Shown piece by piece: positions 6,361-29,241 of a stretch of 64,000 nt of DNA. The stretch is from Xanthobacteraceae bacterium (GTDB taxonomy: Bacteria; Pseudomonadota; Alphaproteobacteria; Rhizobiales; Xanthobacteraceae), in the NCBI GenBank assembly GCA_049512975.1, contig JBEKWO010000005.1, positions 22,073 to 86,072 of the forward strand, read 5' to 3'. The notes below the pieces were generated by a model. The model ran no database searches. It saw only the letters and a program-made list of their open reading frames with translations, and was not told where the DNA came from. The number at the start of each line of letters is the position of its first letter. Position 1 is the first letter of the stretch. A program made the position numbers and the translations under genes.

Positions 6361-6490
6361 GATCGTGCTCCTGCAACGCAATGTCGACGCCGCACGGAAT
6401 CGTGCGCCTGCCAATTATAGCCCTTAGCACGAACGCGGAAAGCCGCCGCGGCGGTTGCGCAACCCCGATTGCCGGACGCTAGAGCTGAGG

Positions 6491-7017: not shown

Positions 7018-7029
7018 CAACGTATTGAT

Positions 7030-7107
7030 CTAGTGTGGCTTTGGTTCAGAAGTCCGCATGACAAGTTCGCGGCAAAAATGATGCGGACTTCTGAACCGCC
7101 ACACTAG
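7030..7107. repeat. 78-bp palindromic intergenic element (REP/MITE-like), copy 2
   Basis: CTAGTGTGG cttt GGTTCAGAAGTCCGCAT [loop] ATGCGGACTTCTGAACC g CCACACTAG. It has perfect 17-bp inner arms and 9-bp outer arms, and overlaps the stop codon of the TetR gene. Confidence 0.8.
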
Positions 7108-7829: not shown

Positions 7830-7914
7830 GACCGAACTCCTGGACGGGGACTTGAACGCGGGACTGATAAATCAATGTAGGCGCCCGCGCCCCCGGTTCC
7901 AAGGCGGCATGCTG

Positions 7915-8766
7915 TCAGTCGGCCAGCTCCCGCGAACGTCGCGTCGCGGCCGCGACCGCCTTATTCATCAGTGGCGCCAAGCCGTCCTTGCCCATCAGCA
8001 CGTTCAGCGCCGCGGCGGTGGTGCCGCCCGGCGAGGCGACATTCTCGCGCAGCGCGCTGGCGTCGAGCGCGGAGCGGTGGAGCAATTCGCCCGCGCCGGC
8101 GACGGTTTCGCGGGCGAGCTTTGCCGCCAGCGGCGGCGGCAAGCCGGCCGCGGCGCCGGCTTGCGCCAGCGCTTCGGCGAGCAAAAAGACGTAGGCCGGT
8201 CCCGAGCCGGACACGGCCGTCACCGCATCCATCAGCGCCTCGTCCTCGATCCATTCGACCGTCCCGGTCGCCGACAGCAGGAGGTGCGCGAGTTCGCGCT
8301 GCGCGGTGTTCGCATGCAGCGGCACGGCGACGGTGATGCCGCGCCCGATCGCGGCCGGCATGTTCGGCATGGCGCGCACCAAGGCGCTCGCGCTCTCGAG
8401 CGTGCGGGACAGGAATTGCAGCGTCCGCCCGGCCATGATCGAAATCACGATCGTCGACGCAGCGATCATCGGCGCCAGCGCCGGCATCACCTGCTCGGCG
8501 ATTTGCGGCTTCACCGCAATGACGATGGCGGCAGCGCCGGTCAGTGCGCCGGCGCGGGGATTGAGCCGCACGCCGCGCTCGGCCAGCGCCCTGATTTGCG
8601 GCGACGGCGAGGGTTCGATGACCGCGACATTCGTCGGCTTCAGGCCGAACCGCAGCCAGCCGTCGAGCAGCCCGCTGCCCATCTTGCCGGCGCCGACCAG
8701 CACGAGCAGACCGGAAAAGTCGCGCAAATCTGAAACGCCGGCGATTGCAGGATCTGAAGCGCTCAT
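7915..8766 (-). CDS. proC: pyrroline-5-carboxylate reductase
   Basis: Start is at the internal ATG at 8766. LVLVGAGKMGSGLLDGW is a Rossmann motif. The C-terminal ASPGGTTAAAL motif is typical of ProC. Confidence 0.88.
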   Translation of the reverse strand: MSASDPAIAGVSDLRDFSGLLVLVGAGKMGSGLLDGWLRFGLKPTNVAVIEPSPSPQIRALAERGVRLNPRAGALTGAAAIVIAVKPQIAEQVMPALAPMIAASTIVISIMAGRTLQFLSRTLESASALVRAMPNMPAAIGRGITVAVPLHANTAQRELAHLLLSATGTVEWIEDEALMDAVTAVSGSGPAYVFLLAEALAQAGAAAGLPPPLAAKLARETVAGAGELLHRSALDASALRENVASPGGTTAAALNVLMGKDGLAPLMNKAVAAATRRSRELAD

Positions 8767-8776
8767 CGGCGTCTTG

Positions 8777-9277
8777 TTACGCCTCGCCGGATGTCTCGAA
8801 CATGGCGGAGTCCATGGCTTCGCGCGCGGATTTGCCCGCCCAAACGACGAACTGGAACGCCGGATAATAGCGTTCACACGCGTCGAGCGCGGCGCCGAAC
8901 ACCGCCTCGCACTGCCGGCCCGAAGCGGCGACGCCGCCTGGCAGCAGCAGCGCATGGCGGAACATCACCACGCCGTTCTGCATCCAGACGTCGAAATGCC
9001 CGACCCACAATTGCTCGTTGATCAGCGCGACGAGCTGCTGCACCTCGGACAGCCGCGGCTCCGGCACGCGCATGTCGAAGGCGCAGGCCAGATGCAGCGC
9101 TTCGATCTCGCTCATCCAGGTGAATGAAATCTGATAATCGGTCCATCGGCCGGTGACGACGATCGAGATTTCGTCCTCGCCGGCGCGTTCGAACGGCCAG
9201 TTGTGGCCGGCCGCCATGTGCTCGACCACGTCGAGGGGATTGGCGGCCGGGTCTCGCGCGATTTCGATAATGGACAT
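8777..9277 (-). CDS. YbjN-domain protein
   Basis: MSIIEIARDPAANPLDVVEHMAAGHNWPFERAGEDEISIVVTGRWTDYQISFTW.... This has a YbjN-like layout and lies upstream of proC. The family assignment is from memory. Confidence 0.6.
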   Translation of the reverse strand: MSIIEIARDPAANPLDVVEHMAAGHNWPFERAGEDEISIVVTGRWTDYQISFTWMSEIEALHLACAFDMRVPEPRLSEVQQLVALINEQLWVGHFDVWMQNGVVMFRHALLLPGGVAASGRQCEAVFGAALDACERYYPAFQFVVWAGKSAREAMDSAMFETSGEA

Positions 9278-9693
9278 GCCGCCTCCACAGCGCCGCTCGA
9301 GTGGAAATGCGCACGCCACTGAACATTGCCGATAGCCGGGCTGCGATTTGACGCAGGACAACTCGCCCGGCGGCTTGACTGAACGTCGCGAATCACTCGG
9401 CGCACCGACTATAGAACGCGCGATTCCTTCCAACAAAACCGGCGCTGGAGCTGTCCGGCGCGCGGCTCGTACCGGCACTCATGAAGTGATTTGCCGCCGC
9501 GGCACAAGCGGGAAGACAGGCCGTCCACAGACCAGTCTGCGACAGTTTGACTCGGGGGTAGGGTGGGGGCGGCGGAAGCGGCCTTGAGGGCCTGGATTGA
9601 ACTAGACGTAACTCATTGAAATGACTCGTTCCCGTCTCGCGAAGCGGCAAGACAGAGTCAGTTCAATGGGTTGGCTCCAATTGAATACGGCCG

Positions 9694-10650
9694 CTAGTCG
9701 AAGAACAGGCTCGATACCGACTCGGCACCGGCGATCCGGTTGATCGCCTCCCCGATCAGCGTCGCGATCGGCAGCACCCGGATGTTGCGGGAGGCGGTGA
9801 CCGCCTCGGTGGGTTGGATCGAGTCGGTAATCACCAGTTCCTTGAGGTTGGAATTATTCACCCGGGCGACTGCCCCGCCCGACAGCACGCCGTGACTGAT
9901 ATAGGCGTAGACTGCGCTGGCGCCCTTTTCCAGCAAGGCGTCGGCGGCGTTGAGCAGCGTGCCGCCGGAATCCACGATATCGTCGACCAGGATGCAGATG
10001 CCGCCGTCCACCTCGCCGATGACGTTGGCCACCTCGGACTCGCCCGGCCGCTCGCGCCGCTTGTCGACGATGGCGAGCGGCGCATTGATGCGCTTGGCGA
10101 GGCCGCGGGCGCGCACCACGCCGCCGACGTCGGGCGACACCACGATGACCTTGGCGAGATCGAAGCGCTGTTTGATGTCCCGTACCATGACCGGCGAGGC
10201 AAACAGGTTGTCGGTGGGGATATCGAAGAAGCCCTGAATCTGTCCGGCGTGCAGATCGAGCGTCAGCACGCGGTCGGCGCCGGCGCGGGTAATCAGGTTG
10301 GAGACCAGCTTGGCGGAAATCGGCGTGCGCGGGCCGGGTTTGCGATCCTGCCGGGCGTAGCCGAAATAGGGGATCACCGCGGTGATGCGCTGTGCCGAGG
10401 CGCGGCGCAGCGCGTCGATGATGATGAGCAATTCCATCAGGTGGTCGTTGGCCGGGTATGACGTCGACTGAATGGCAAAAACGTCGGCGCCGCGCACGTT
10501 CTCCTGGATTTCGACAAAAATCTCCATGTCGGCGAAACGGCGCACCACCGCCTTGGTCAACGGGATGCCGGTATAGGCGCCGATCCCCTCGGCCAGCACA
10601 GGATTCGAGTTGCCGGCGATGAGCTTGATGGCTCCGTTGTTGCTCGCCAT
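9694..10650 (-). CDS. prs: ribose-phosphate pyrophosphokinase
   Basis: [21 protein letters not shown]...[10 protein letters not shown]...[11 protein letters not shown]...[13 protein letters not shown]. These are the canonical PRPP synthetase motifs. Start is at the ATG at 10650. Confidence 0.93.
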
Positions 10651-10676
10651 TCCGCTCCCCTGCGCGCCCGCGCGGT

Positions 10677-10737
10677 CAGAGCATGATCCCGAAAAGTAGT
10701 ACCGGTTTTCGGACAAGATCAGGCTCAAACAAAAGCC
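10677..10737. repeat. short palindromic intergenic repeat (GAGCATGATCCCGAAAAG...CGGTTTTCGGACAAGATCAGGCTCAAACAAAAGCC)
   Basis: Imperfect hairpin TGATC-CCGAAAA / TTTTCGG-acaa-GATCA. It resembles a repeat family I recall as common in Bradyrhizobiaceae intergenic regions. That recollection is not verifiable here. Confidence 0.5.
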
Positions 10738-10904
10738 AGGACCTGATACAAGCCGCTTCGGGGGCTGGCAACATGAATCGCGGTCTTGTCCCCGCAGGAT
10801 TTCGGCTGCAATCGCAATAGCTTTGCGGCTTGGTAAATGGTGGGCAGCGAATGGCGAATGTGAGCAGCAGATAGGACCGGGTCTACGTACCCGTTCGCCG
10901 CTCG

Positions 10905-11684
10905 CTACGCGCCATTCGCGCTGGTCAGGGCAATGGCGTTGACGTGACGTCCGTAATCCGCTTCGGCGCGGTGGGTCGAGCGGCGGAAGCTGAAAAACCG
11001 CACCGGATCGGCGTAGGTGCACAGGCCCACATCCTCGACCTCGCGAATACCCGCCCGATGCAGCTGGGCCGCGATATAGGCCGCCAGATCGAACAGCGCA
11101 TGGCCGCTGCGCGATGCCGGCACGAAGAAACGCTCGCTGGCCGAATCCTCGGCGGCAAAGCGCGCGATGAGGTCGGCGCCGACCTCGTAATTATGTTGCC
11201 GGATCATCGGGCCGAGCGCGGCGCGGATCCGGCTGCGTTCGGCGCCGAGCCGCTCCATCGCCGCGACCGTTGCCTCCAGAATACCGGCCAGCGCACCGCG
11301 CCAGCCGGCATGCGCCGCGCCGATCACGCGGGCCCGCGGATCGGCGAGAAGGATCGGACCGCAATCGGCGGTCGTCACCGCGATCGCGAGGCCGGGCATC
11401 GAGGTGACGATGGCATCGCCGCGCGGACGCGATTCCGGCGGCCAAGGCGCCGTAGCGACGACGACATGCGGCGAGTGGACCTGGTGGGCGGCGAGCAAAC
11501 GGTGCGGCTCGACATCAAGCGCCACCGCCATGCGCGCACGATTTTCCGCGACATGGGCGGCACTGTCGCGCGAACCGACACCGCCATTGAGACTGGCATA
11601 GAGGCCGCCGGAGACGCCGCCTTGCCGCGTGAAGAAGGCGTGGCGGACGCCGGGAAGCGCAAGGGTCTGGGCTTGGATCATCAT
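10905..11684 (-). CDS. pgeF: peptidoglycan editing factor PgeF (YfiH/laccase-domain, DUF152)
   Basis: 259 aa: ...[11 protein letters not shown]...HQVHS...[14 protein letters not shown]...GAAHAGWRG.... Confidence 0.85.
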
Positions 11685-14980: not shown

Positions 14981-15004
14981 GGTCGCGCACGCGGGACGAA
15001 GCCG

Positions 15005-15625
15005 ATGCTGCTCCTGGTCGGACTCGGAAATCCGGGAGCACGCTATGTCGGCACCCGCCACAACGTCGGCTTCATGACGGTTCAGGCGATCGCGAAGCGC
15101 CACGGCATCGGGCCGTGGCGCCGCCGCTTCCAGGGCGTCGCCTGCGAGGGGACGCTCGGCGGCGCGCGCGTGCTGCTGCTCCTGCCCGGCACCTATATGA
15201 ATGAATCCGGCCGCGCCGTCGCCGAGGCGGCGCATTTTTACAAGCTGCCGCTTGCCGATATCACGGTGTTCCACGACGAGATCGAGCTGGCGCCGGGCAA
15301 GGTCAGGGTCAAGGTCGGCGGCGGCATTGCCGGGCATAACGGGCTGCGCTCGGTCAGCGAGCACATCGGCAACGATTACCATCGCGTGCGCATCGGCGTC
15401 GGCCATCCCGGCCACAAGGATCTAGTGGAGCATTATGTGCTCAGCGATTTCGCCAAGAGCGAGCAGCGCTGGGTCGAGGCGCTCACCGACATCCTCGCCG
15501 ACAATGTCGATTTTCTCGTCCGCGGCGAGGACGCGAGTTTTCAGAACAAGGTCCACCTCGCCATGGTGGCGAAGGGATTTGGACAGCAAGACCAGGACTC
15601 CAACGGCGATCACGCCGGCGCGTGA
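15005..15625 (+). CDS. pth: peptidyl-tRNA hydrolase
   Basis: [23 protein letters not shown]...[11 protein letters not shown].... Confidence 0.93.
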
Positions 15626-15653
15626 ATCGCCGGCTAACCGGTGAAAATCGTTC

Positions 15654-16751
15654 ATGGGCTTCAAATGCGGCATCGTCGGCCTGCCGAATGTCGGCAAGTC
15701 GACCCTCTTTAACGCGTTGACCGAAACCGCGGCGGCGCAGGCGGTGAATTATCCGTTCTGCACCATCGAGCCGAATGTCGGCGAGGTCGCGGTGCCGGAC
15801 CCGCGGCTGGAAACGCTGGCGGTGCTCGCCAAATCGGCGACGATCGTGCCGACGCGGCTCACCTTCGTCGACATCGCCGGCCTGGTGCGCGGCGCCTCGA
15901 AAGGCGAGGGGCTGGGCAACCAGTTTCTCGCCAATATCCGCGAGGTCGACGCCATCGCGCATGTGGTGCGCTGCTTCGAGGACACCGACGTGACCCACGT
16001 CGAAGGCCGCATCGATCCGATCGCCGATATCGAAACCGTCGAGACCGAATTGATGCTCGCCGATCTCGACAGCCTGGAGCGGCGCGTCGACGGATTAAGC
16101 AAAAAGGCCAAAGGCGGCGACAAAGAAGCGAAGGAAACGCTCGACCTGATCAATCGCGCGCTGGCGCTCTTGCGCGAGGGCAAGCCCGCGCGCCTGACCG
16201 CGCGCAAGCCCGAGGAGGAGCGCGCGTTCCACATGCTCGGGCTCCTCACCTCGCTGCCGGTGCTCTACGTCTGTAATGTCGAGGAGGCTTCGGCCGCGAG
16301 CGGCAACGCTTATGCGCGCCAGGTCGAAGCCAGAGCCGCGGCGGAGGGCGCCGCCGCCATCGTCATCTCGGCCAAGATCGAGGCCGAGATCGCGGTGCTC
16401 GCGCGCGACGAACGCAACGATTATCTGGCCGCTGTCGGTCTTGAGGAAGCTGGACTCGATCGCCTGATCCGTGCCGGTTATGCGCTGCTCGACCTCGTGA
16501 CCTTCTTCACCGCCGGGCCGAAGGAGACGCGCGCCTGGACGGTGACGCGCGGCACCAAGGCGCCGCAAGCCGCGGGTGTCATCCACACCGATTTCGAGCA
16601 TGGCTTTATTCGCGCCGAGACGATCGCCTACGGCGACTACGTCGCGTACGGCGGCGAAGCCGGAACGCGCGATGCCGGCAAGATGCGGCTGGAGGGCAAG
16701 GACTACGTCGTCCAGGACGGCGACGTCATGCACTTCCGGTTCGCGACGTGA
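15654..16751 (+). CDS. ychF: redox-regulated ATPase YchF
   Basis: MGFKCGIVGLPNVGKSTLFNALT...FVDIAGLVRGASKGEGLGNQFL.... The C-terminal TGS-like region ends with MHFRFAT. Confidence 0.95.
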   Translation: MGFKCGIVGLPNVGKSTLFNALTETAAAQAVNYPFCTIEPNVGEVAVPDPRLETLAVLAKSATIVPTRLTFVDIAGLVRGASKGEGLGNQFLANIREVDAIAHVVRCFEDTDVTHVEGRIDPIADIETVETELMLADLDSLERRVDGLSKKAKGGDKEAKETLDLINRALALLREGKPARLTARKPEEERAFHMLGLLTSLPVLYVCNVEEASAASGNAYARQVEARAAAEGAAAIVISAKIEAEIAVLARDERNDYLAAVGLEEAGLDRLIRAGYALLDLVTFFTAGPKETRAWTVTRGTKAPQAAGVIHTDFEHGFIRAETIAYGDYVAYGGEAGTRDAGKMRLEGKDYVVQDGDVMHFRFAT

Positions 16752-16761
16752 ATCTCAGTGT

Positions 16762-16794
16762 CAGTAATCAGTAATCAAAGGAATCTGATTACTG
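16762..16794. repeat. hairpin CAGTAATCAG-N13-CTGATTACTG between convergent ychF and the DUF4282 gene
   Basis: Perfect 10-bp stem. The same CAGTAATCA/TGATTACTG arms recur at 23155-23199. No U-run follows, so it is not a canonical intrinsic terminator. Confidence 0.7.
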
Positions 16795-17091
16795 TCCTCT
16801 GATCCCTGTTCCCTGATTCCTGATGGCGCCAAGGTGCTCGTTGATGCGGAACACGATGAGCACGAATTCGGCCATGATGCGCGCGAAGATGACGCCCATG
16901 CAGGCGCCGAGCAGGCTGGCGATGAGAGTGATCATGCCGACGAAGGGATTGAACGCCATGGTGGCGAGCGAGGACACCGCGCCGGCGACCCCGAGCAGGA
17001 TCGAAATCACGACGGCGAGCCAGTAGAAGACCTTGATGATCGTGGGCGTTACGAACCGCTCCCACTGGAACAAGTCGCCAATGCCGAACAT
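16789..17091 (-). CDS. DUF4282-domain small membrane protein
   Basis: 100 aa: MFGIGDLFQWERFVTPTIIKVFYWLAVVISILLG.... It has two TM helices. The family is recalled from memory. Confidence 0.7.
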   Translation of the reverse strand: MFGIGDLFQWERFVTPTIIKVFYWLAVVISILLGVAGAVSSLATMAFNPFVGMITLIASLLGACMGVIFARIMAEFVLIVFRINEHLGAIRNQGTGIRGQ

Positions 17092-17565
17092 GCTGGATCC
17101 TCCCCGGCGCGAACCACATGACCGTGACTGGGCGCCTGGCGTGCCGAATCTGCGCTGCTTGAGAAGCCCCTTATAGAGTGCACGCCGCCTTTGCGGTGGT
17201 CAAATCGAGCCTCCTTTGGCGGCGCGCGGACATATCCCGCCGCAAAAGTATGGCCCGACCACGGTTGCGCGTCGGCAATTTTGCGGCGCCGGAACGCCGG
17301 GAGTGGCGTTCGGCAACCACTTGCGCCGAGCAGGGACGCACCACGTGGCCGCGCGTTGGGTCGGCATGCTCGGATCGTTGCGTCCGACGCAAATGATGGA
17401 GTTCTCGATGAGAAACCACATCTCCTACACAGTTCTTTGCAGCGCAGCCACGGGGAGAATCGGCGGCGGTCAACACTTCTTTGCCGCGAGGGCGAAAAGC
17501 TGCTTGCTGCTTCCGCGGCGACCGGGTGTTATAATAACCCCAGCGATGGCACGGAGAACACGAAC

Positions 17566-17943
17566 ATGATTCTACCCGCGGCGCTGGCGCTTGGCGCGCA
17601 GCTCATGATGCCGGTCGCCGACGGCGTTCCTGTGCTCAACGTCGAGCAGGTCTGTGAGGGTATCGCCCAGCAGGGCGGCGTGACGTTCCATGATCCCGCC
17701 ATCGCCCAGGAGAAGAAGAACTGCCTGGACAGCGAGCAGGCCGTCCGCGAGGAACTCGTCAAGCAATGGTCGAGCTTTGCCGCCGCCGACGAGACCTCTT
17801 GCGTGAACGAATCGAGGATGGGTGGGGAGTCCAGCTACACCGAGCTGCTGACATGTCTGGAAATGGCGCGCGACGTCAGAGCCATGCGCAATGAGCAGCA
17901 GCAGCAGCAGGGTGCACCGAGCGGCGCCAAGCCGGCGCGCTAA
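17566..17943 (+). CDS. hypothetical secreted protein (Cys-containing, Gln-rich tail)
   Basis: GGAG Shine-Dalgarno sequence, then the ATG at 17566. MILPAALALGAQLMMPVADG looks like a signal peptide. The upstream extension to 17191 in the ORF track is Arg-rich junk. Confidence 0.55.
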   Translation: MILPAALALGAQLMMPVADGVPVLNVEQVCEGIAQQGGVTFHDPAIAQEKKNCLDSEQAVREELVKQWSSFAAADETSCVNESRMGGESSYTELLTCLEMARDVRAMRNEQQQQQGAPSGAKPAR

Positions 17944-17984
17944 CCGACTTTCCCCGCGGCCTTAAGATCGGCCGCAGTGCGAAC

Positions 17985-18806
17985 CTAATAGCCGAGCAGA
18001 ATTTCGCTGACCGCCGGGTTGACCGCCCGCAGCGCCGGATCGGACGAACTGTATTCATGGTCGGCCGGCAACGCGGTCACTGCATCGGCGGGGGCCTTCG
18101 GGTCGGCCTGCAGGCTGACGCCGGACTTGCAGCCGCCGGCAAGCGTCGCCAGCGCGCCGCCATCCCAGTCGCTGACGGTCGCGGCATTCGCTTTATCTTT
18201 GTCAAAGCCTTTGAGCTTGAACGGCTTGTGATTGAGCTTTTCCAGCTCCGCCAACGTCAGGCCGAGCCGCATACCGCCCGGCGCCCCCCAGGTCGATTGG
18301 CCGTTGATCAGGATGAGATAGATACCGCTGCGGTTCGTCGAATTGGACCACCAAATTTCGAGGCGGCGCTTGGGGTCTTTGGGGAACAGGATTGAGGCCC
18401 CCACCTTGGTGCCGTTGACGTCGATATCGCTAAAGGTGACGTTTCTCGAGTCGAAGGCCATGGCGAGCTTCAGATTGCCCGAGTCTTTGGCGAACGGACC
18501 GCTGCAGGCGACGTCGCGAAAGATCGCAGCCCGCGGTTGTTTCCGGGTGGCGGTGTGAGGCGCGGCCGGTGCGTCGCTCGCGGCATGCTTGGCCGCGTGC
18601 GCGTGACCGGGGACGGTCGGCGTCGGGACCGCAGCCGGCATGGGCTGTGTCACCTGCGACGGCGCGAGCTGATCATTGGCATCGAGGCTTGGATCGTACT
18701 GCAGCGCCGGAGCCGGTCTCGTCTGCGGCTGCTGCGCCCAGGGCGAGCCGGCCATTCCCAGGGCGAGGCCGGCTATCAACGCTGCTTCGATCAATCGCCG
18801 ATGCAT
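17985..18806 (-). CDS. hypothetical secreted protein
   Basis: MHRRLIEAALIAGLALGMAGSPWAQQ is a signal peptide, followed by a Pro/Ala-rich linker and a globular C-terminal domain. I do not recognise a family. Confidence 0.6.
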   Translation of the reverse strand: MHRRLIEAALIAGLALGMAGSPWAQQPQTRPAPALQYDPSLDANDQLAPSQVTQPMPAAVPTPTVPGHAHAAKHAASDAPAAPHTATRKQPRAAIFRDVACSGPFAKDSGNLKLAMAFDSRNVTFSDIDVNGTKVGASILFPKDPKRRLEIWWSNSTNRSGIYLILINGQSTWGAPGGMRLGLTLAELEKLNHKPFKLKGFDKDKANAATVSDWDGGALATLAGGCKSGVSLQADPKAPADAVTALPADHEYSSSDPALRAVNPAVSEILLGY

Positions 18807-18939
18807 TCTAAGCGCCTCCCGTGCCGCGCGTGACGTAAAAGCATAGCATAGCAATCGGGGCTGCGAAAATTCCGTTGGTGGTGATTGTGTGCTCAGGCCC
18901 GCCGTGTTCGGCGTCGGTCAGCTTGGTGGGATAATGTTT

Positions 18940-18981
18940 TGGTGGAGCCAGGGGAGTCGAACCCCCGACCTCTTGAATGCC
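18940..18981 (-). repeat. direct repeat of the 3' half of tRNA-Ala(GGC) (att-like islet boundary)
   Basis: TGGTGGAGCCAGGGGAGTCGAACCCCCGACCTCTTGAATGCC equals 23046-23088 except for one fewer G in a G-run. It has the same orientation as the intact tRNA. Confidence 0.85.
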
Positions 18982-19406
18982 CATTTTAAGGGTGGCTAAT
19001 TCCTGCTGCTTCCTCAACCTTCCTAGATATTTCAATAAATCCCTTGGAATGGGCATTTTTCAGCGTAATTGGCTCCCTTGATCAGTGCGCCGCTGGAGAT
19101 GGCTGCCTAGGAGGAGGCAGCGCGATCAGTGCTAATCGGGCAAGCCTTGTGCTCGCAAAGTCCCGCGCTAGGCGCGTGACCAGACGGCCGGCCTCCTCCG
19201 CATTGATCATGAGCAGCTTGATGATATCCTGCACGGTGCATCATGGTCAGGATCGAAGTCAGTGACCATAGCGCCAGAATGGCACGAGTGGCCCTGCTTC
19301 ACAGGCAGCGCCGAAACTTATCGATCGCACTGGGCAATCGAGATTTGTGGGTCAGGGCCGTCATGCAACCTCCATCGTTCCCTGAAATCCGCAATGCTTG
19401 AGAAGG

Positions 19407-20558
19407 ATGTCAGCAGGTGTTAACTGCATATGGTCGGCTGCAGTGAAGCTGAACTTTTTCCGTCGACGGCGTCTGCCAGCGAAATATGCGGCTCTTAACT
19501 ACTTCGGGACAAACAATCTCGGGGACGAAATTCAAACGATTGCGGCCTTGCGGTTTCTGCCGCGCGTCGATGCATGGGCGGATCGCGACCAGTTGAGTGC
19601 TTTTTTATCGGATACAACCCACAAAATCATTTTGAACGGATGGTTTCTTCGCCGGCCAGAGCATTGGCCGCCCTCTCGATGTCTTCATCCCCTGATTGTT
19701 TCGTTCCATCTGACACGCCGAGTTTCGGACTTGAATTTCAGCAAGGTCGCGCCAAGCTCGACGGTTCTTGGCCCAAAGGGGATCAGATATCTCAAAAATC
19801 ATGAACCCATCGGCGCGCGCGACCTGGACACTCTTGAGCAACTTCGAGCAGCGGGCGTGCGCGCGTACTTTTCGGGCTGCCTGACTCTGACTTTGCGTGC
19901 ACCACATTCTCCCCGCCGGGGCGAGATCTATGCCGTCGACGTTTCAGATGAGGTTTTTGCATTTCTTGCCTGCCACAGCGATGTCCCAATCACCCGGCTG
20001 ACGCACGCTGACCATGATCTGACCGGTCAAGCTCGCTTCGATAGGGCGGCATGGCTGCTTGCGCACTATTCTTCGGCCAAAGCTGTTGTGACCGGAAGGT
20101 TGCACTGTGCGCTTCCCTGCCTGGCACTGGGCACGCCAGTTTTGTTCGTCGAATCGGCTGACGATCCGTATCGTTTTCATGGCCTGAGAGATTGGCTAAG
20201 GCACGTTTCGGAGCCGCAGCTTCTCGAGGGTCGATACCAATTCGACCTGCGCTCGCCAACGCCGAACGGCAATGATTGGTGCGTCTTGCGTGATCAACTC
20301 GAGGAGAGATCAGATCGGCGAGTTGAAACTCGAGCTGTCTTTCGTTTGATGGTTTCCCTCCGTTTGAGTATGGCCGGGCCTCGGCGTCCGAAAGCTTGCG
20401 GGCCGGCGGTCGCCCTGAGGTATTCGAAACTCCATGCCCTCCACATTCGACCCAACGACCCATTTGCCTTCGCAGCTCGCGCTCGAGCCGCAATCCGATA
20501 CCCGACACACGGCGGTGCTTGCCAGACCCGGCAGGCAGCCCGTCGGTATCTCGTTTGA
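19407..20558 (+). CDS. polysaccharide pyruvyl transferase family protein (start uncertain: TTG 19398, ATG 19407 or GTG 19443)
   Basis: Motifs NYFGTNNLGDEIQ, IGARDLDTLEQLRAAGV, FSGCLTL and VVTGRLHCALPCLALGTPVLFVES match the PS_pyruv_trans family as I remember it. GC is about 52% by hand count. The last 40 or so codons are Arg-rich and overlap the next gene. Confidence 0.72.
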   Translation: MSAGVNCIWSAAVKLNFFRRRRLPAKYAALNYFGTNNLGDEIQTIAALRFLPRVDAWADRDQLSAFLSDTTHKIILNGWFLRRPEHWPPSRCLHPLIVSFHLTRRVSDLNFSKVAPSSTVLGPKGIRYLKNHEPIGARDLDTLEQLRAAGVRAYFSGCLTLTLRAPHSPRRGEIYAVDVSDEVFAFLACHSDVPITRLTHADHDLTGQARFDRAAWLLAHYSSAKAVVTGRLHCALPCLALGTPVLFVESADDPYRFHGLRDWLRHVSEPQLLEGRYQFDLRSPTPNGNDWCVLRDQLEERSDRRVETRAVFRLMVSLRLSMAGPRRPKACGPAVALRYSKLHALHIRPNDPFAFAARARAAIRYPTHGGACQTRQAARRYLV

Positions 20559-21609
20559 GAGTCTCGGGCGACGCCTAGAGACGTCTGAGCATCTCGATGG
20601 TTTCATTGCCGTGTTGCTGCCCGCGCTTCTCCGCGCCGATGGCGCCGTGCATGTCGCGGGCACACTGACGCGGGAAATCGTGCGAAATCTGATCGACGCC
20701 AGTGAAGGCTGGGAAAATTGGAATGTCGATCACTACCGTGCCCTGCGCATCAGCGCAGACTGCATCATCGATCCGCCGGTGCCAACGTTGTCCCCGCGAG
20801 CGGCTTTCGCCTGGTCGGGTAGTTTGAGATCTACTCATACCCTCGTGCGCCATTACGCCCGCAGCGTGCCGGGAGCGGTTCAGGTTGCTCGGATTGTTCA
20901 CGTTATCGGCCTGCAGGGTGACGCGCGAACGGTCTCTACCGATGCGATTGCGGCTGAAGTGAACAAGCATGCCGAACGACTCGGCGCGACAGCCGAATGC
21001 GTGGTGACGAACGCGCATGAGGTCGGTCTCGTCGAAACCGAGATGGGCGTGTTGCCAGTGATTGCGGCAGCGCTGCATCTCACCGCCACGGACCTGAAGC
21101 TCGGCTTTCACGCTCGACGATGGCCTTTCTCGGCACAGCTTCGTTACCCGAGGCCAGAACCCGCATTTCCCGATGTATTCTGCGGTTCTCGAATGCTGAT
21201 ACGTGCTGATGGCGGGGCGACAACCCCGACGCAGATGGTGCGCGAGGTTCGCGAGCATGCTCCGTTTCTGCTGGCTGCCATCAGCGGCTGCAGCGAGCGA
21301 CCTCGCTTCACTTCTCCCTGCGGAGCCTGCTCGGGCTGCATCATCACGTCGCTCGCATTCGCGGCCGCCGGCACCTCTCACCATGCTTTGCCCCCGCCAA
21401 CCGCATTTGAGGTTGCGCGGCTGCAGTGGAGCGATCCGATCGTCGCCGCGGAAGCAACCGAGATTGCTTCAGACTGGTCAACACCCGGATCGCGCTTACA
21501 TCTGGCACTTCGTCGCCGAGTCGAACGGGATCGCGCAAACGCCGCGAGCGTGGAAGTGCGCCGCTGGCTCGCCTCCGCCACCGGCCTGGGGCCCATCTGG
21601 CCACGCTGA
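20434..21609 (+). CDS. QueC-like PP-loop superfamily paralogue with a degenerate PP-loop (SGSLRS); unknown N-terminal domain
   Basis: 391 aa. It aligns by eye along its length with the next gene: AFAWSGSLRSTHTLVRH vs IAALSGGLDSTFTAVRH, VVTN vs VRTN, and GCSERPRFTSPCGACSGCIITSLAFAAAG vs VCWAGDDPGKNCGACEKCVMTRLNFLAAG. Confidence 0.6.
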   Translation: MPSTFDPTTHLPSQLALEPQSDTRHTAVLARPGRQPVGISFESLGRRLETSEHLDGFIAVLLPALLRADGAVHVAGTLTREIVRNLIDASEGWENWNVDHYRALRISADCIIDPPVPTLSPRAAFAWSGSLRSTHTLVRHYARSVPGAVQVARIVHVIGLQGDARTVSTDAIAAEVNKHAERLGATAECVVTNAHEVGLVETEMGVLPVIAAALHLTATDLKLGFHARRWPFSAQLRYPRPEPAFPDVFCGSRMLIRADGGATTPTQMVREVREHAPFLLAAISGCSERPRFTSPCGACSGCIITSLAFAAAGTSHHALPPPTAFEVARLQWSDPIVAAEATEIASDWSTPGSRLHLALRRRVERDRANAASVEVRRWLASATGLGPIWPR

Positions 21610-22826
21610 TGTCGCAACCCGTCCACATCTGGTTCGTGGAAGGTCAGGAGGGCGGCGAAGTCGTTCGCCGGCTCGTCTGCAAGGGCGTCGTGGGCCGCGG
21701 CGCGCCTCGTCTCGACCTGTGGTGGCGTATTCCGGGTATCGCTTCCCTCCCAACGCCGCCAGTACTCGACTCCCTGCTCGGGGGCCCGTTGCTCTGGGCA
21801 GCGATGTCGGACCAGGACGTCGTCGTGCACGGGCCGGTCAGCACCGGTGGCCTGTACAACCTGAGTCAGCTGATCGAAGTCCGTCAACGGCTCTCGCCCG
21901 AGCGCTACCCGCGCGTGATCGAAGTGCGTCCGGACAGTATCCTCGAAGTCGCGCGCGACGCTCATGAGCCGTCGAAGGCGATCGCTGCGTTGTCCGGCGG
22001 CCTAGACTCAACCTTCACCGCCGTACGGCATGGGCTCGGGCTGGCAGGCGAGGCCACGATCCCCATCGAGGCGATGGTGATGATCCATGGCTTCGACGCA
22101 TCGCTCGATCGCATGGATCAATTCGATGCGATGCGCCGCCGCGCCGAGCCGACGATAAAGCTGCTCGACGTTCCCTTTCATGTCGTGCGCACCAACAGCA
22201 AGCTGGACGGACGGACCTGGCCGCATTCCGCGATCCCGCTGACAGTGAGTGCTCTCTCGCATTTCGGCCATCTGGCGCCGATCGCCCTGGTCTCCTCCGG
22301 CGCACCGTACGGAATCCCACGGTTCGGCATTTCGCATCCTACGGCAGTCGAATCGCTAGCATCAGGCGACTGGTTCCGCGTGGTGACGGACGGGAGCGGA
22401 TTTGGCCGTACTGAAAAGGTGGAGATGTTGACGCCGTACCCGGCCGTGCTCGCTGCCGTCAAGGTCTGCTGGGCGGGCGACGACCCCGGTAAGAACTGCG
22501 GAGCGTGCGAAAAGTGCGTGATGACTCGCCTTAACTTCCTGGCGGCGGGTATCCGCGATGCACCCTGCTTCGACACGCCGCTGACTCCAGAACTGATCGC
22601 AGGCCTCTCCATGCCGTCGATGAACGCGGTACGCGACCTGTTCCGGACGTGCTGGAACGAGTTAGAGGCGCGCAATTGCAGCGGGCCGGAAGTCGACCTA
22701 CTGCGCAGGCGCCTGAGCCGTGTTCCGCCGGACGTTGTGGTCGAGTGGAGGAAGAAAACTCACGACAACATTGCGCGATGGCTGCCACGGTGGGTCAAGC
22801 AACTCATTAAACGCGCGCTCGCCTAG
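21609..22826 (+). CDS. QueC-like PP-loop ATP pyrophosphatase with an unknown ~125-aa N-terminal domain
   Basis: The ATG at 21609 overlaps the upstream TGA (TGATG). It has a canonical PP-loop AIAALSGGLDSTFTAV and a QueC-type Cys tetrad C-x9-C-x2-C-x2-C (VCWAGDDPGKNCGACEKC). Confidence 0.7.
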   Translation: MSQPVHIWFVEGQEGGEVVRRLVCKGVVGRGAPRLDLWWRIPGIASLPTPPVLDSLLGGPLLWAAMSDQDVVVHGPVSTGGLYNLSQLIEVRQRLSPERYPRVIEVRPDSILEVARDAHEPSKAIAALSGGLDSTFTAVRHGLGLAGEATIPIEAMVMIHGFDASLDRMDQFDAMRRRAEPTIKLLDVPFHVVRTNSKLDGRTWPHSAIPLTVSALSHFGHLAPIALVSSGAPYGIPRFGISHPTAVESLASGDWFRVVTDGSGFGRTEKVEMLTPYPAVLAAVKVCWAGDDPGKNCGACEKCVMTRLNFLAAGIRDAPCFDTPLTPELIAGLSMPSMNAVRDLFRTCWNELEARNCSGPEVDLLRRRLSRVPPDVVVEWRKKTHDNIARWLPRWVKQLIKRALA

Positions 22827-23045
22827 CGCCTACGCGTCACTTTGCGTCGCTCGAGATTCACGAAGCCACGACCCGACGCCCTGGTGTAATGCTTCGAACG
22901 CGGAGGCCGCGAGTTCTTCCTGCTTTTCAGCAGGCCAGTCCCGGAAAAGCGCTTGCGCTGCTTTCCAGGTGCTTCCCCCGCGGCGAGCCCATCACGGCTC
23001 GCCGGGAATCTCTCATATAATATGTATAAAAATCAGTAGCTTAAG

Positions 23046-23121
<76 letters not shown>

Positions 23122-23154
23122 TCCAGAGAACAGGTATCGGTAATCATGGAACAG

Positions 23155-23199
23155 TAGTCAGTAATCATGGGCACGTTCTGATTACTGATTGCTGACTAC
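23155..23199. repeat. bulged hairpin GTAGTCAGTAATCA...TGATTA(ctgattg)CTGACTAC downstream of the TIGR02300-family gene
   Basis: 8-bp and 6-bp stems. It shares the CAGTAATCA/TGATTACTG core with 16762-16794. GTAATCATGG is also repeated at 23140 and 23161. Confidence 0.65.
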
Positions 23200-23209
23200 C
23201 GATGCCTGA

Positions 23210-23623
23210 TTAGCCTTCCTCCTCGTCTTCGATGTCGCCGCCGATGATGTCGGTGACATCGGCGTCCTCTTCCTCCTGCTCCTCGATGAGGGCGGCATCG
23301 TCCAGGCTCTCGCCGATCTCGACATCTTCTTCGATGTCGGGCTCGGTGGTTTCGACCGCCTTCTTGCCGCCCTGCGCCTCGGCGTCGGCATCTTCCAGCG
23401 AGACGAATTCGGCTTCCACCGGCTCCGGCACCGCGACTTCTTCTGCCGGAACGGGAGTGCGTGGAGCCGCCGCCTGCTGCTCGGGCCGCGCCCGCGAGAT
23501 CGGCGTTTCCACCGGCACGACTTTGCCGGTATACGGCGAGATCACGGGATCCTTGTTGAGGTCATAAAACTTGCGCCCAGTGTCGGGGCAGATGCGCTTG
23601 GTGCCAAGTTCCGCTTTCGCCAC
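23210..23623 (-). CDS. TIGR02300 (FYDLN_acid) family protein, acidic C-terminal tail
   Basis: [34 protein letters not shown]..., followed by an Asp/Glu-rich tail. Confidence 0.85.
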
Positions 23624-23731
23624 GGCCGAAATCCTTCAATTTGGGAGCTTCACTTGGCTAGTCGTGGTGCGCCTGTCAATAGCGGATTGCCGCCGCCCCG
23701 TGATAGAGGACGCGGGCTGGATTCTTTCCCT

Positions 23732-25060
23732 ATGCACGCCGATCCCCCGACCCTCACCGCCCGCCGCCATGGCCCCTTGAAAGGCCGTGTGCGCGTACCC
23801 GGCGATAAATCGATCTCGCATCGGGCCCTGATCATCGGCGCGCTCGCGGTCGGCGAGACGGCGATCAGCGGCTTGCTCGAAGGCGAGGATGTCCTCAATA
23901 CCGCCAAGGCGTTGCGGGCGCTCGGCGCGCAGGTCGAGCGGCCCGCGGCGGGGGAATGGCGGGTCCGCGGCGTTGGGGTCGGCGGCTTCGCCGAGCCTGC
24001 GGCGCTCCTTGATTTCGGCAATTCCGGCACCGGGTGCCGGCTCATGCTCGGGGCGGTAGCCGGCTGCCCCATCACCGCGACCTTCGACGGCGACGCCTCA
24101 TTGCGCAAGCGCCCGATGCAACAGGTGCTCGACCCGTTGCAACGCATCGGTGCGCGTACGCTCGCGGCGACGGCCGGCCGCTTGCCGCTGACGCTTGCCG
24201 GCGCGCGCGCGCCCATCCCCATCGTGTTCGAGCCGCCGGTGCCGTCGGCGCAATTGAAGTCGGCGGTGCTGCTTGCCGGCTTGGCAGCGCCGGGCGAGAC
24301 GGTCGTCATCGAAGCGGAAGTGACGCGCGACCATACCGAAAAGATGTTGGCCCTGTTCGGCGCCGACGTCCGGGTCGAGCCGCAGGGGGCGAATGGCCGC
24401 CGCGTTACGCTAGCCGGCCAGCCGGAGCTTTCGCCGCAGCCGATCAGGGTCCCCGCCGACCCGTCCTCGGCGGCGTTTCCGCTCATCGCCGCGCTGATCA
24501 CGCCGGGCTCTGACGTGATTCTCGACGGCGTGATGCTCAATCCGCTGCGCACCGGCCTGATCACGACTTTGCGCGAGATGGGGGCCTCGATCGAGCAGAT
24601 CGAGAGGCGCCAGGAAGGCGGCGAGGACGTTGCCGACCTGCGCGTGCGGGCTGGCGCACTGCGCGGTGTCGAGGTCCCGGCCGCGCGCGCGCCGGCGATG
24701 ATCGACGAATATCCGGTGCTGGCGATTGCCGCCGCCTTTGCCGAGGGCACGACGGTGATGCGCGGTCTCAAGGAGTTGCGGGTGAAGGAGTCCGACCGCC
24801 TCGCCGCGACCGCCGACCTGTTGCGCGCCAATGGGATTGCGGCCGACATCGAAGGTGACGATCTTATCGTGGACGGCAAGGGCCGGGCCCCCGGCGGCGG
24901 CCTCGTCGCAACCCACATGGATCACCGCATCGCCATGGCGGCGCTGGTGCTGGGGCTTGCCAGCGAGCAGCCGGTGAAGATCGACGACGCCAGCTTCATC
25001 GCCACGAGTTTTCCGGGTTTTCTGGATTTGATGCGATCGCTGGGCGGGATTTTGTCATGA
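23732..25060 (+). CDS. aroA: 3-phosphoshikimate 1-carboxyvinyltransferase (EPSP synthase)
   Basis: [39 protein letters not shown]...LDFGNSGTG...KESDRL.... Start is at the ATG at 23732. Confidence 0.93.
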
Positions 25061-25695
25061 TCATCGCCATCGACGGACCGGCCGCCTCGGGCAAGGGGAC
25101 GATCGCCAGACAAGTCGCGGCCGTCTATGGACTGCATCATCTCGATACCGGGCTGCTCTACCGCGCCGTAGCCAAGGCGGTGCTCGACGCCGGCTATTCG
25201 CCCAGCGATGTGGAACGCGCCATCGAAGCCGCCATCGCGCTCGATCCGGCAAAATTCGATGACAATGTGCTGAAATTGCCGGCCATTACCGAGGCCGCTT
25301 CGGTGGTCGCAGCGATCCCGCAGGTGCGTCAGGCGCTGATGAGCTATCAGCGCCAATTCGCGACGCGGCCGCCCGGCGCGGTGCTCGACGGCCGCGATAT
25401 CGGCACCGTCATCGCCCCCGGCGCCGACGTGAAATTGTTCGTGGTAGCGAGCCCGGAGGTGCGGGCCGCTAGGCGCGTCCGTGAGCTTCGGGCGCGCGGC
25501 GAAGAGGCCGATGAGAAGGAGGTCTTAGCCGACCTCCTCCGGCGCGACGAACGCGACTCCCGGCGCACCGCTGCGCCGCTCAAGGCGGCGCCGGATGCGC
25601 ACTTGCTCGACACCACCCATTTAGGTATAGACGCCGCATTCCGGGCCGCTGTTGAGATCATCGAGGCCGCCCGAACGGGCCGAAGGCGCGGTTGA
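25057..25695 (+). CDS. cmk: cytidylate kinase
   Basis: [21 protein letters not shown].... It has an ATGA overlap with aroA. Confidence 0.93.
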
Positions 25696-25855
25696 CTGCG
25701 CTTTCGTCATTGGAGGTTCCGCCCGTTCGCCGCTTCGCATGCGAGGCCCCGGACAAAGCTTCGTCCCGATCGTCTGGCTTTGGCCCCAACCGCCGGCTTC
25801 CCCGGCGGCTGCTGTGCGTTCGGGACCGTTCCATTTCACGGGGCTCGGAGTATTC

Positions 25856-27598
<1,743 letters not shown>

Positions 27599-27707
27599 CG
27601 CGGCTCATGGGCGGCCGGCGACCGAGCTGCGTCCTGGCCGCTCAAGTCATCGTCGCGCCGGCGCGCCGGCCTCCGCCGCGCCTTGTCCTGGCGCATACCG
27701 CGTGAAC

Positions 27708-29241
27708 ATGCGGCGCGGTATGGCCAAGCGATCCTTGTTGCAGGGGCTGCAGGTGCGAGCCGCGGCGCTTATCTCGCCGTTCACGGACAACTCGCGCGTC
27801 GTGACGTTCTGCCTGTTCGGCTACGCGGTTCTTTTGGTGCCGATTCTGGTTGGCGTAAAGTGGCCGCAGGACCTATTCCAGGATAGCGTCGAGGCCTACG
27901 CCTGGGGCCAGCAATTCCTCGGCGGCTACGGTCGGCATCCGCCGATGACCGGTTGGATCGCCGGCGTTTGGTATCGCCTGTTCCCGGCGGCCAACTGGTC
28001 CTCCTATCTGCTTTCCCACGTTATGGTCGCGATTTCGTTGATCTCGGTCTACTTTATCGGGCGGCGCGCTCGACGCTCGCCGGGCCACGTTCGCCATCTT
28101 TGTTCTAATGTTGTATCCGCTGTTTCATCTGAACTCGGATCGCTACAACTGCTACCAGGTGCTGCTGGCGCTGCTGCCGCTTCTGGTTCTCGCTTTCCTG
28201 AACGCGTTCGAAAGGCGCACCGCCGGCTCCGGGGTGTTGCTCGGCCTCGCCGCAGGGGCGGCCACGTTGACCAATTATTCGGTGCTGATTTGTGTTGTTG
28301 GGATCGGGCTTGCGGCCGTTCTGCACCGGGATCGCCGCCGCTTTTTTACTTCGCCATCGCCATATTGGGCCACCGCCGTTTGCTTTCTTGCTTTGTCTCC
28401 TCACCTCGTTTGGCTGGTCAATCGGAACTATTCCTCACTACGATGGGTCGAGGCGCAAATAACGGGAGAGAGTACCGCCGAAAGCGTGCTTCATTATCTG
28501 TATGATCACGCATTCTTATTCATCATGCCGCTTGTCGGCGCCGCATTGGCGCTTTGGCCGATTCGGTGGAGCGGGGCGGGCAAGGAGCGGAAACTTACCT
28601 CTCCGGCATTTCTCGTCCTGGTGATTGGCGCGGTGCTGGTCTGCTCGCCGCTGCTGCTGGCCATTCCTTTGCACGTTCACTTGAAATCGGATTGGGGAAA
28701 GTCGCTGTTTTTCCTGGTGCCGATCATGGCATTGCTGCTTGTGCCGCGGCTGCGGATCACCCGTCGCGCCGTGGCCTCGAGCGCGCTGATTGTGGGTGTT
28801 TGGCTGTTGCTGATGGTGGTCGCTGCCCCGGTCTATCCTTGGCTGAGCTTCCGCGTGCGGCCGAACGCAGGGTCCTACCACCCGTTCTCTGAGATCGCTC
28901 CGGAGGTTACGCGTCTTTGGCGGGAGCGTTACAACTCGCCGCTGCCGCTCGTCGTTTCCAGGTTCTCCGTCGCGGCGGCCGTAGTCTTTTACAGTCCCGA
29001 TCACCCCCGAATGTATGCTGACTTTAACCCAGACCATAATCCTTGGCTCGATTATCCCACCGAGCTTCACCGCAAGGGATTTGTTGGCGTATGCGTCGAA
29101 GACGATGAATACTGCACAACAGAACTCGACAAGATCGCCCCTAACGCCGAACGACTTATTATTGGGGTATCGCGTAAATTCGCCGGCATGAGCGGCAATA
29201 TCGTGAAAGCTCAAGTTCGCATCGTGGGTCCGGGCTCATGA
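27708..29241 (+). pseudogene. glycosyltransferase family 39 (ArnT/PMT_2-like), reading frame broken near 28060-28070
   Basis: The N-terminal part is in one frame (...AYAWGQQFLGGYGRHPPMTGWIAGVWYRLF...ISLISVYFIGRR). The polytopic remainder is in the next frame (ALDARRATFAIFVLMLYPLFHLNSDRYNCYQVLL...). The second frame is open only from 28042. Confidence 0.7.

Follow-up and report, generated by a model that had tools for sequence, protein, structure and literature searches.

The tRNA-linked islet and its three genes

We analyzed a 64,000-nucleotide stretch of contig JBEKWO010000005.1 from a Xanthobacteraceae bacterium (hereafter, the window), which contains a compact cassette of three genes on the plus strand. 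The first gene, g1 (19407-20558), encodes a polysaccharide pyruvyl transferase (PT), the third, g3 (21609-22826), encodes a QatC-like ATP pyrophosphatase of the PP-loop type, and the gene between them, g2 (20434-21609), encodes a degenerate QatC/QueC-like paralog of g3. The analysis described below places this cassette in a large, uncharacterized branch of the QueC superfamily, which is QatC-like and tied in function to polysaccharide PTs.

The three genes are the sole cargo of an islet of about 4.1 kb (18982..23045) that is inserted at the 3' end of a tRNA-Ala(GGC) gene, its integration target (23046-23121, minus strand; detected by ARAGORN and matching Rfam family RF00005 with 67 bits). A partial duplicate of the tRNA-Ala 3' end, 42 nt long and also on the minus strand (18940-18981), marks the distal edge of the islet as an att-like direct repeat; 31 nt of the repeat are exact (18951-18981 vs 23058-23088, with a spacing of 4107). 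The GC content of the islet is 0.55-0.60, compared with 0.63-0.70 in the flanks, which consist of core and housekeeping genes (pth, ychF, the gene for a FYDLN_acid protein, aroA, cmk and rpsA). The list of open reading frames (ORFs) includes no integrase or recombinase between 18982 and 23045, and we therefore refer to the islet as a remnant. The same islet, in the same arrangement, is carried by a near-identical metagenome contig (L088). The tRNA 3'-end repeat and the dip in GC content bear out the suggestion, made in an earlier note on this sequence, that the context is horizontally acquired and tRNA-linked; the module arrived at tRNA-Ala by horizontal transfer.

The PP-loop protein g3 is most similar in structure to QatC

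The g3 protein contains the PP-loop motif SGGLDS (21993-22010) and a Zn-binding cysteine tetrad of the form C-x9-C-x2-C-x2-C (22467-22517), which reads CWAGDDPGKNCGACEKC. Residues S129, G131 and D133 of the loop and all four cysteines are invariant across 28 homologs. The protein consists of an N-terminal alpha/beta domain of about 120 aa, a Rossmann core, the Zn site and a C-terminal basic helical extension. A Foldseek search with its AlphaFold2 model (pLDDT, the predicted local distance difference test score, of 90.5) identified as the top PDB match the QatC subunit of the QatB-QatC complex (9y01_B, E-value 4e-7, 353 columns), followed by the QatC chain 9y02_B (E-value 2e-6; 351-353 columns and a template modeling score of about 0.45 for the two chains) and by Cap9 (9nto_B), with NcsA among the weak fold matches. 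The best matches in BFVD, a library of viral structures, are phage QueC proteins.

Sequence profiles failed to assign g3 to any of these families. The match to the QueC profile PF06508 is below the cut-off (18.7 bits vs 22) and covers only residues 268-309, that is, the Zn region, and the scores against TIGR00364 (QueC; 10.9 bits, cut-off 150.3) and the NCBIfam QatC model NF041925 (10.8 bits, cut-off 280) are lower still. Among the NCBIfam and Pfam families, no WbuX-type amidotransferase (NCBIfam model of WbpG/WbuX, TIGR03573) or AsnB-like uronamide synthase matched g3 at E<=1, and NCBIfam gave only QatC and QueC traces; PADLOC yielded zero matches for g1, g2 and g3. A search of PDB sequences with g3 or the family profile was tried and set aside, having returned PP-loop traces to GMP and NAD synthetases and a spurious match to a PPR-repeat protein, such that fold comparison was needed. 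In a by-eye comparison, as opposed to a structural superposition, the QueC motifs YxQxHxxE, VPxRN and YPDC are absent from both g3 and the family consensus, and the equivalent positions of g3 read HGFD, V.TN and WP. The earlier note would have been refuted by profiles that assign the second and third genes to a characterized family with known partners; none did so, every QueC, QatC, WbuX and PADLOC profile being below threshold or without a match. Its description of a QueC-like core is accurate as far as the SGGLDS motif and the C-x9-C-x2-C-x2-C tetrad of g3 are concerned and requires amendment in that the closest solved structure is QatC, not QueC.

The paralog g2 and the tandem arrangement

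The start codon of g3 and the stop codon of g2 share one base (TGATG). The two proteins are paralogs, as indicated by BLASTP (E-value 8e-8, 25% identity over 271 aa) and by the hhalign comparison of the respective family profiles (probability 99.9%, E-value 4.8e-31, 316 columns). In g2, the PP-loop is altered to SGSLRS (20815-20832), with the loss of the Asp, and the R/K of the g3 motif TDGxGFGRxxK are missing as well; the Cys tetrad is retained in the Zn-site segment CSERPRFTSPCGACSGC (21289-21339). The AlphaFold2 model of g2 (pLDDT 88.9) produced no significant PDB match in the fold search, the weak PP-loop matches being NcsA, Cap9, ArtA and TilS, and the QueC profiles (PF06508 and TIGR00364) did not match g2; hence its placement relies on the profile-profile homology to g3. 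Across 21 g2 homologs, the N-termini are variable and contain no conserved Gly motif, whereas the altered loop AWSGSLRSTHTLVRH, the Zn cysteines, the motifs RADGG and YPRP and a C-terminal ...WPR are conserved. The conservation of the loop, the cysteines and the C-terminus argues that g2 is not a decaying copy. These findings agree with the earlier description of the two genes as an active/degenerate paralogous pair with N- and C-terminal extensions.

Homologs that are at least 44% identical to g3 form a clade with 14 distinct loci, in all of which the g2 gene lies directly upstream of g3, with overlaps of 1-4 nt. The clade spans Alphaproteobacteria, Planctomycetes, Verrucomicrobiota, Binatia and Tepidisphaerales. 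The g2 partner is confined to this one clade. More distant members of the family (29-39% identical to g3) are mostly single, and some of them form tandem pairs in which both copies are active. Two long representatives of the family, P0126 (778 aa) and P0243 (689 aa), are single polypeptides in which a degenerate copy of the domain precedes an active one; the PP-loop in the N-terminal half of P0126 has become GGGLDG, and its Zn cysteines have disappeared. These fusions represent an independent route to the inactive/active arrangement seen in g2 and g3. Because g2 and g3 are translationally coupled and strictly adjacent, and because tandem fusions occur naturally, we predict that g2 is the non-catalytic half of a g2/g3 heterodimer. 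We also considered the idea, which we do not claim, that the C-terminal ...WPR of g2 is itself the carboxylate substrate; the precedent is PesC, an asparagine-synthetase-like ATP-dependent nitrile synthetase that works on a peptide C-terminus (PMC13060819).

Two peculiarities of individual g2 loci should be mentioned. In the alphaproteobacterial metagenome-assembled genome (MAG) closest to the window (L004/L008, 6831-8001; g3 80% identical), g2 is broken into two overlapping ORFs, owing to a frameshift or to a long-read assembly error. In one lineage (L001, 5714-6856; L002, 217-1359), the start of g2 is overlapped by a gene of the Aminotran_5 family (class V aminotransferases and cysteine desulfurases), which could supply an amine or sulfur donor.

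The pyruvyl transferase g1 and its deletion-made tail

The g1 protein, for which we take the ATG at 19407 as the start (the mechanical ORF begins at the TTG at 19398), is a member of the PF04230 family (PS_pyruv_trans), with an E-value of 5e-13 and a score of 50 bits against a cut-off of 25.3; residues 37-249 align with profile positions 1-277 of 280. The conserved donor-site motifs of this family are an N-terminal NxGD, a central RD and a C-terminal TxRLH, and all three are intact in g1 (NNLGDEIQ, GARD and TGRLHCAL, respectively). The only PDB sequence match is Pvg1p from Schizosaccharomyces pombe, in which TDRLH (5ax7) aligns with TGRLH of g1. The family profile, matched above the gathering cut-off, and the intact motifs confirm the earlier identification of the first gene as a polysaccharide pyruvyl transferase.

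The 3' part of g1 is a different matter. Comparison of L088 with the window by blastn shows that L088 positions 1-5319 correspond to 14992-20310 (99.9%) and positions 5529-10914 to 20311-25696 (98.3%), so that 209 bp of L088 (5320-5528) are missing in the window at the junction 20310/20311. The deleted segment held the last ~9 codons of g1, its stop codon and part of the g1-g2 spacer. In L088, the PT is 309 aa long, has its own stop codon and is followed by a spacer of ~300 bp before g2, whereas in the window, the native part of g1 (19407-20310, ~301 codons) continues into an out-of-frame read-through tail of ~80 aa (20311-20558) that overlaps g2. The PT core is intact despite the deletion. 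Because L088 retains both the stop codon and the spacer, the 125-nt overlap between g1 and g2 is a strain-specific deletion artifact and not a native feature. Of the three co-directional overlapping genes that had been noted originally, the three co-directional ORFs and the one-base overlap of g2 and g3 stand, and the overlap of g1 and g2 does not.

A large, unnamed family linked to pyruvyl transferases

In a word-seeded protein search, g3 retrieved 77 proteins and g2 retrieved 47, every one of them named 'hypothetical', with 13 g2/g3 pairs located on a common contig. An exhaustive hidden Markov model (HMM) search of 50%-identity cluster representatives with the g3 family profile gave 8,479 matches at E<=1e-3, a number that falls to 6,553 at E<=1e-10 and to 3,069 at E<=1e-30. 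The g3 family is thus large, and it is unnamed: the Azospirillum members appear in RefSeq as 'hypothetical protein', the Pfam family DUF6395 touches the Zn region in a few members, and a recent similarity-network survey of PF06508 does not include the g3 family. For the analysis of gene neighborhoods, we scanned one genome per species with a narrow alignment of 16 sequences, which yielded at least 558 loci, 80 of which were analyzed.

With an HMM built from the PTs of these loci, a PT was detected at a distance of up to 6 kb from the g3-like gene in ~41 of 78 distinct loci, usually adjacent and co-directional. The PT-linked loci come from Alpha-, Beta- and Gammaproteobacteria, Cyanobacteria, Actinobacteria, Verrucomicrobiota, Binatia and Planctomycetes, and include 17 loci from Psychrobacter along with those from Azospirillum, Thiobacillus, Denitrobaculum, Ilumatobacter and several cyanobacteria. 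Pfam searches of the flanking ORFs (at most two on each side) of the remaining loci added 4 further PTs. Moreover, among the 150 top representatives of the family, 18 are longer than 540 aa, and 11 of the 15 of these that were examined are fusions of an N-terminal g3-like domain with a C-terminal PT; another long protein, P0210, has a C-terminal repeat region without a Pfam match.

Within the clade of the window, the PT itself is not constant. The sister cassettes that are 79-85% identical have the gene order g2-g3-PT, which differs from that of the islet, and g1 is only distantly related even to their PTs. We had expected g1 to be orthologous to these PTs and ruled this out: its comparison with the PT from the sister cassette that is 85% identical gave an E-value of 0.03. 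Elsewhere, a g1-like PT was found in one planctomycete locus only, with 38% identity. The association between the ligase and a PT has been re-made with a different PT and thus survives non-orthologous replacement, which argues for selection on the pairing itself. With g2 and g3 adjoining throughout their clade and a PT close to about half of the g3-like genes, the co-occurrence of the genes, the absence of which would have refuted the earlier note, is strongly conserved. The trio itself is an elaboration, restricted to one clade, of a module of two genes (or one fused gene) that is much more widely distributed.

Genomic neighborhoods point to surface glycan synthesis

The neighbors of g3-like genes include wzx flippases, wzc, EpsG, GT2 and GT1 glycosyltransferases, wzm/wzt, Wzt_C and sulfotransferases, and the most common neighbor families are the wzx flippases, PTs and glycosyltransferases. 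In Psychrobacter, the gene order wzc - Polysacc_synt_2 - wzx - g3-like - PT - GT2 ... EpsG - GT1 is that of a classical capsule or O-antigen locus. Similarly, one cassette of the g2/g3 type (L001) lies amid seven glycosyltransferases, another locus (L089) contains TupA-like ATP-grasp genes and Methyltransf_21, and a sister cassette with the order g2-g3-PT (L094, 1-17191) is followed by wzm and by wzt with a Wzt_C domain. In five loci (L015, L074, L082, L083 and L087) from Thiobacillus, a deltaproteobacterial MAG (L074) and cyanobacteria, a PP-loop protein of ~600 aa related to Asn_synthase, QueC and DUF7411 is encoded directly upstream of the g3-like gene, at ~1.6 kb. Because the two genes neighbor each other in all five, the Asn_synthase-like gene is not redundant with the g3-like one; some glycan loci thus carry a second, different ATP-dependent enzyme of the amidotransferase type. 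The context of the family is glycan biosynthesis, not defense. Of the two functions suggested in the earlier note, glycan tailoring is the one that gains from these data, through both the polysaccharide-locus neighbors and the natural fusions of the g3-like domain to PT.

Several further observations were made on these loci and on the window. The L094 cassette is flanked on one side by a giant polyketide synthase gene and on the other by a serine recombinase with DUF2924, a layout that hints at mobility and at a role in the capping of glycans exported by ABC transporters. A distant g3 homolog in L005 (21-9220; ~35% identity in the tblastn segment and 28% in the 28-sequence alignment) adjoins an 843-aa beta-helix (NosD-like) protein and a run of ORFs, both large and small, without Pfam matches, which resembles a phage tail or depolymerase module; no PT was seen on this contig. 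In the window, a membrane glycosyltransferase of the PMT_2 family (ArnT-like, GT-C) is split over two overlapping frames (27381-29241, plus strand), with the Pfam profile positions 2-60 in the ORF 27381-28505 and positions 65-160 in the ORF 28108-29241; it is located in a lower-GC, strongly T-skewed stretch and is either a frameshifted pseudogene or the result of a sequencing error. Besides the tRNA, the sole Rfam match above the gathering score in the window is a serC leader (RF00517, 70 bits; 2399-2450, minus strand).

A proposed function: modification of the pyruvate ketal

All characterized enzymes of the g3 fold use ATP to activate a carboxylate or an amide and produce an amide or a nitrile (PMC13329287, PMC13279940, PMC13060819). 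QueC converts 7-carboxy-7-deazaguanine (CDG) to 7-amido-7-deazaguanine and then to preQ0, Cap9 and QatC link CDG through an amide to a protein N-terminus (PMC13329287, PMC13279940), and related adenine-nucleotide hydrolases are nitrile synthetases (PMC13060819). Taking this chemistry together with the linkage to PT, we consider it probable, if by a modest measure, that the PT installs a pyruvate ketal and that the g2/g3 heterodimer adenylates the carboxylate and converts it, most likely to an amide.

Under this model, g1 would move enolpyruvate from phosphoenolpyruvate onto a sugar of a lipid-linked or nascent surface glycan, generating a pyruvate ketal (1-carboxyethylidene). The g3 protein, the only subunit with an intact PP-loop, would then bind ATP and adenylate a carboxylate, as its QueC, Cap9 and QatC relatives do; the most plausible target is the one installed by the PT, because the minimal module supplies exactly one new carboxylate. 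The acyl-adenylate would be passed to an amine; as the module does not encode any other donor, the simplest choice is ammonia, and the expected product is a neutral pyruvate-ketal carboxamide or, following the use of a second ATP, a nitrile. QueC crystallized as a dimer, and g2, which keeps the fold and the Zn site, may have replaced one protomer of the ancestral dimer as a non-catalytic half. Such a module could work as a stand-alone 'serotype-modifying' unit on a glycan that is made elsewhere in the genome.

More broadly, it is plausible rather than probable that this large unnamed branch of the QueC/QatC enzymes has been recruited to surface glycans at large, converting ketal carboxylates to carboxamides, nitriles or amide conjugates, with one clade having combined the heterodimer with a PT in a mobile three-gene 'surface-recoding' cassette. 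Pyruvate ketals give negative charge to bacterial capsules, O-antigens, exopolysaccharides and cell-wall polymers, and are recognized by SLH domains, lectins, antibodies and the receptor-binding proteins of phages. If the model is correct, masking or derivatization of the ketal carboxylate would change the charge, the antigenicity and the susceptibility to phages. A carboxamide could be easily overlooked in routine structural analysis because the mass difference from the acid is ~1 Da and the 13C shifts of the two are similar. Members of the family are found in organisms that can be cultured (Psychrobacter, Azospirillum brasilense Sp7, Thiobacillus denitrificans, Gloeothece and Nostoc), which makes the hypothesis directly testable.

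Counter-evidence and alternative explanations

A number of observations weigh against the modification of a PT-installed ketal. No PT is present in the available flanks of ~40% of the loci, and even the g2/g3 clade includes three to four loci without one (L010 and L014 with full flanks, L009 and L013 on short contigs). Two of the long representatives (P0180 and P0253) carry, in place of a PT, a Methyltransf_24 (O-methyltransferase) domain on the C-terminal side of the g3-like one; the ligase is also wired to tailoring enzymes other than PT, and for this reason the carboxylate need not be the pyruvyl one. Stand-alone modules away from glycan loci occur in the window, in L003, where the module lies between tRNA synthetases, and on plasmid p3 of A. 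brasilense Sp7, where a multicopper oxidase and an ABC permease flank the pair. In the strain analyzed here, g1 with its deletion-made tail may be impaired. Finally, the keyword-searched text of a 2019 review of pyruvylated glycoconjugates did not record an amidated, nitrile or otherwise derivatized pyruvate ketal (PMC6801904), and the proposed product would accordingly be unprecedented, as far as that text goes, and its formation new chemistry. Searches for published chemistry that connects pyruvyl groups to amides, nitriles, QueC, PP-loop enzymes or DUF6395 found nothing relevant in the searchable literature, and neither did searches for Psychrobacter or Azospirillum polysaccharide structures with modified pyruvate.

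The Methyltransf_24 fusions and the loci without a nearby PT would be explained if the ligase tailored glycans on a different substrate, with the PT being a frequent co-tailoring partner; for instance, it could amidate a uronic or nonulosonic acid, form an amide between an amino sugar and a small carboxylic acid (an amino acid or even CDG, the substrate of Cap9), or add a chain-terminating cap. The wzm/wzt genes with the cap-recognition domain Wzt_C next to the L094 cassette, which recur among the neighbors, point in the same direction, as does QatC, which is also devoid of the canonical QueC substrate motifs and yet is a proposed user of CDG (PMC13329287). We regard this as plausible, although considerably less likely than modification of the ketal: the PT fusion is the dominant architecture among the long representatives examined, the minimal stand-alone modules consist of PT and ligase only, so that the PT product is the sole carboxylate supplied by the module, and genes for UDP-sugar dehydrogenases or nonulosonate synthesis are not among the 25 most frequent neighbor families. 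The same stand-alone modules amid unrelated genes could be taken to mean that the PT-like enzyme and the ligase act in a non-glycan pathway, on a small molecule or a protein-linked group, with the stand-alone modules of two or three genes being the actual functional unit and polysaccharide loci only one home among several. The prevalence of flippases, PTs and glycosyltransferases among the neighbors makes this quite improbable, and every characterized PF04230 member that we know of pyruvylates glycans; furthermore, horizontally acquired stand-alone genes that modify the O-antigen (acetyl- and glucosyltransferases) are well known.

The structural similarity to QatC (in the QatB-QatC complex) and Cap9, the QatC-like N- and C-terminal extensions of g3 (PMC13279940) and the horizontally acquired, tRNA-linked islet could all be accommodated by an anti-phage or protein-modifying function of the Qat or type IV CBASS (cyclic oligonucleotide-based antiphage signaling system) kind, in which g2 or g1 would receive, at its N-terminus, a deazaguanine carboxylate conjugated by g3. 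Against this, PADLOC and the QatC model NF041925 failed to recognize the proteins, no qatA, qatB, qatD, CD-NTase or TGT-like neighbors were found in ~90 loci, the neighborhoods are polysaccharide loci as opposed to defense islands, and there is no homolog in 50,697 phage records; PHROGs gave one weak match, in the Zn region, to a 'QueC-like' phrog. The N-terminal modification of the PT or partner in the manner of Cap9 or QatC was rejected as a general mechanism: in the fusions, the PT domain is C-terminal and its N-terminus is not free, and the g2 N-termini are unconserved. Such a function is therefore highly improbable, and, with dpd partners likewise missing and the QueC substrate motifs absent, the alternative suggestion of the earlier note (defense or nucleobase modification) is not sustained. 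Similarly remote is sulfur transfer by a LarE/TtuA/NcsA-like PP-loop enzyme that would convert a carboxylate or carbonyl to a thio-derivative. The Aminotran_5 gene directly before g2-g3 in L001/L002 and the presence of NcsA among the weak fold matches are compatible with it, but that gene is found in one lineage only, the enzymes with the best fold matches (QatC, Cap9 and QueC) form amides, and the metal site is a QueC-type Cys4 Zn site (C-x9-C-x2-C-x2-C), in contrast to the three-Cys [4Fe-4S] site of LarE and TtuA (PMC13329287). Conversion of the PT-installed ketal carboxylate, most likely to an amide, thus remains the explanation that we prefer.

Comparison with known systems

By profile score and by the NxGD, RD and TxRLH motifs, g1 joins the characterized PF04230 members CsaB, WcaK, ExoV, GumL, WcfO and Pvg1p; to our knowledge, there is no report of a fusion or pairing of any of these with a PP-loop enzyme. 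A functional analogy is offered by WbpG/WbuX and the AsnB-like uronamide synthases, which are ATP-dependent PP-loop enzymes encoded in surface-polysaccharide loci that make an amidine or amide from an acyl or carboxyl group on a sugar. However, the WbpG-type enzymes contain SGGxDSxY and CxxC-x6-CxC motifs, with an order and spacing different from those of g3. The closest architectural analogy for the g2/g3 pair, the interaction of which we infer, is the Ncs6/Ncs2 (Ctu1/Ctu2) thiolase, an obligate heterodimer of an active PP-loop protein and a degenerate paralog. The Ncs6/Ncs2 system is eukaryotic or archaeal, its substrate is tRNA and its sulfur chemistry is based on an iron-sulfur cluster, in all of which it differs from the cassette; the latter would be a bacterial example of an active/inactive PP-loop pair.

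With QueC (7-cyano-7-deazaguanine synthase, PF06508) and Cap9, g3 shares the PP-loop ATP pyrophosphatase core and the C-terminal Cys4 Zn site, and with them potentially the chemistry in which a carboxylate is converted to an acyl-AMP and then to an amide (and further to a nitrile). The differences are that g3 is ~170-220 aa longer and lacks the substrate motifs YxQxHxxE and YPDC (PMC13329287), and that no queD, queE, TGT or CD-NTase gene is located nearby; the CD-NTase and the TGT-like Cap10 that accompany Cap9 in type IV CBASS are absent from the window and from the inspected loci. If the proposed function is correct, glycan chemistry would be the fourth arena of QueC-like enzymes, after queuosine synthesis, DNA modification and protein deazaguanylation (Qat, CBASS).

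The closest relative in structure is QatC of the QatABCD system (PDB 9y01/9y02; PMC13279940), in which, as in g3, a QueC Rossmann core containing SGGxDS and a Cys4 Zn site is preceded by an alpha/beta extension and followed by C-terminal helices. QatC, too, works with a dedicated partner protein. Sequence identity between QatC and g3 is 13%, and the spacing of the Zn site is C-x19-CGxCxxRR in QatC vs C-x9-CGxCxKC in g3. The cassette is devoid of qatA (ATPase), qatB and qatD (TatD nuclease), both in the islet and in the neighborhoods of the homologs; here, the partner is a paralogous pseudo-enzyme and/or a PT, and the context is polysaccharide synthesis. The recurring pairing of a PT with a QatC-like protein points to an undescribed chemical modification of pyruvylated surface sugars.

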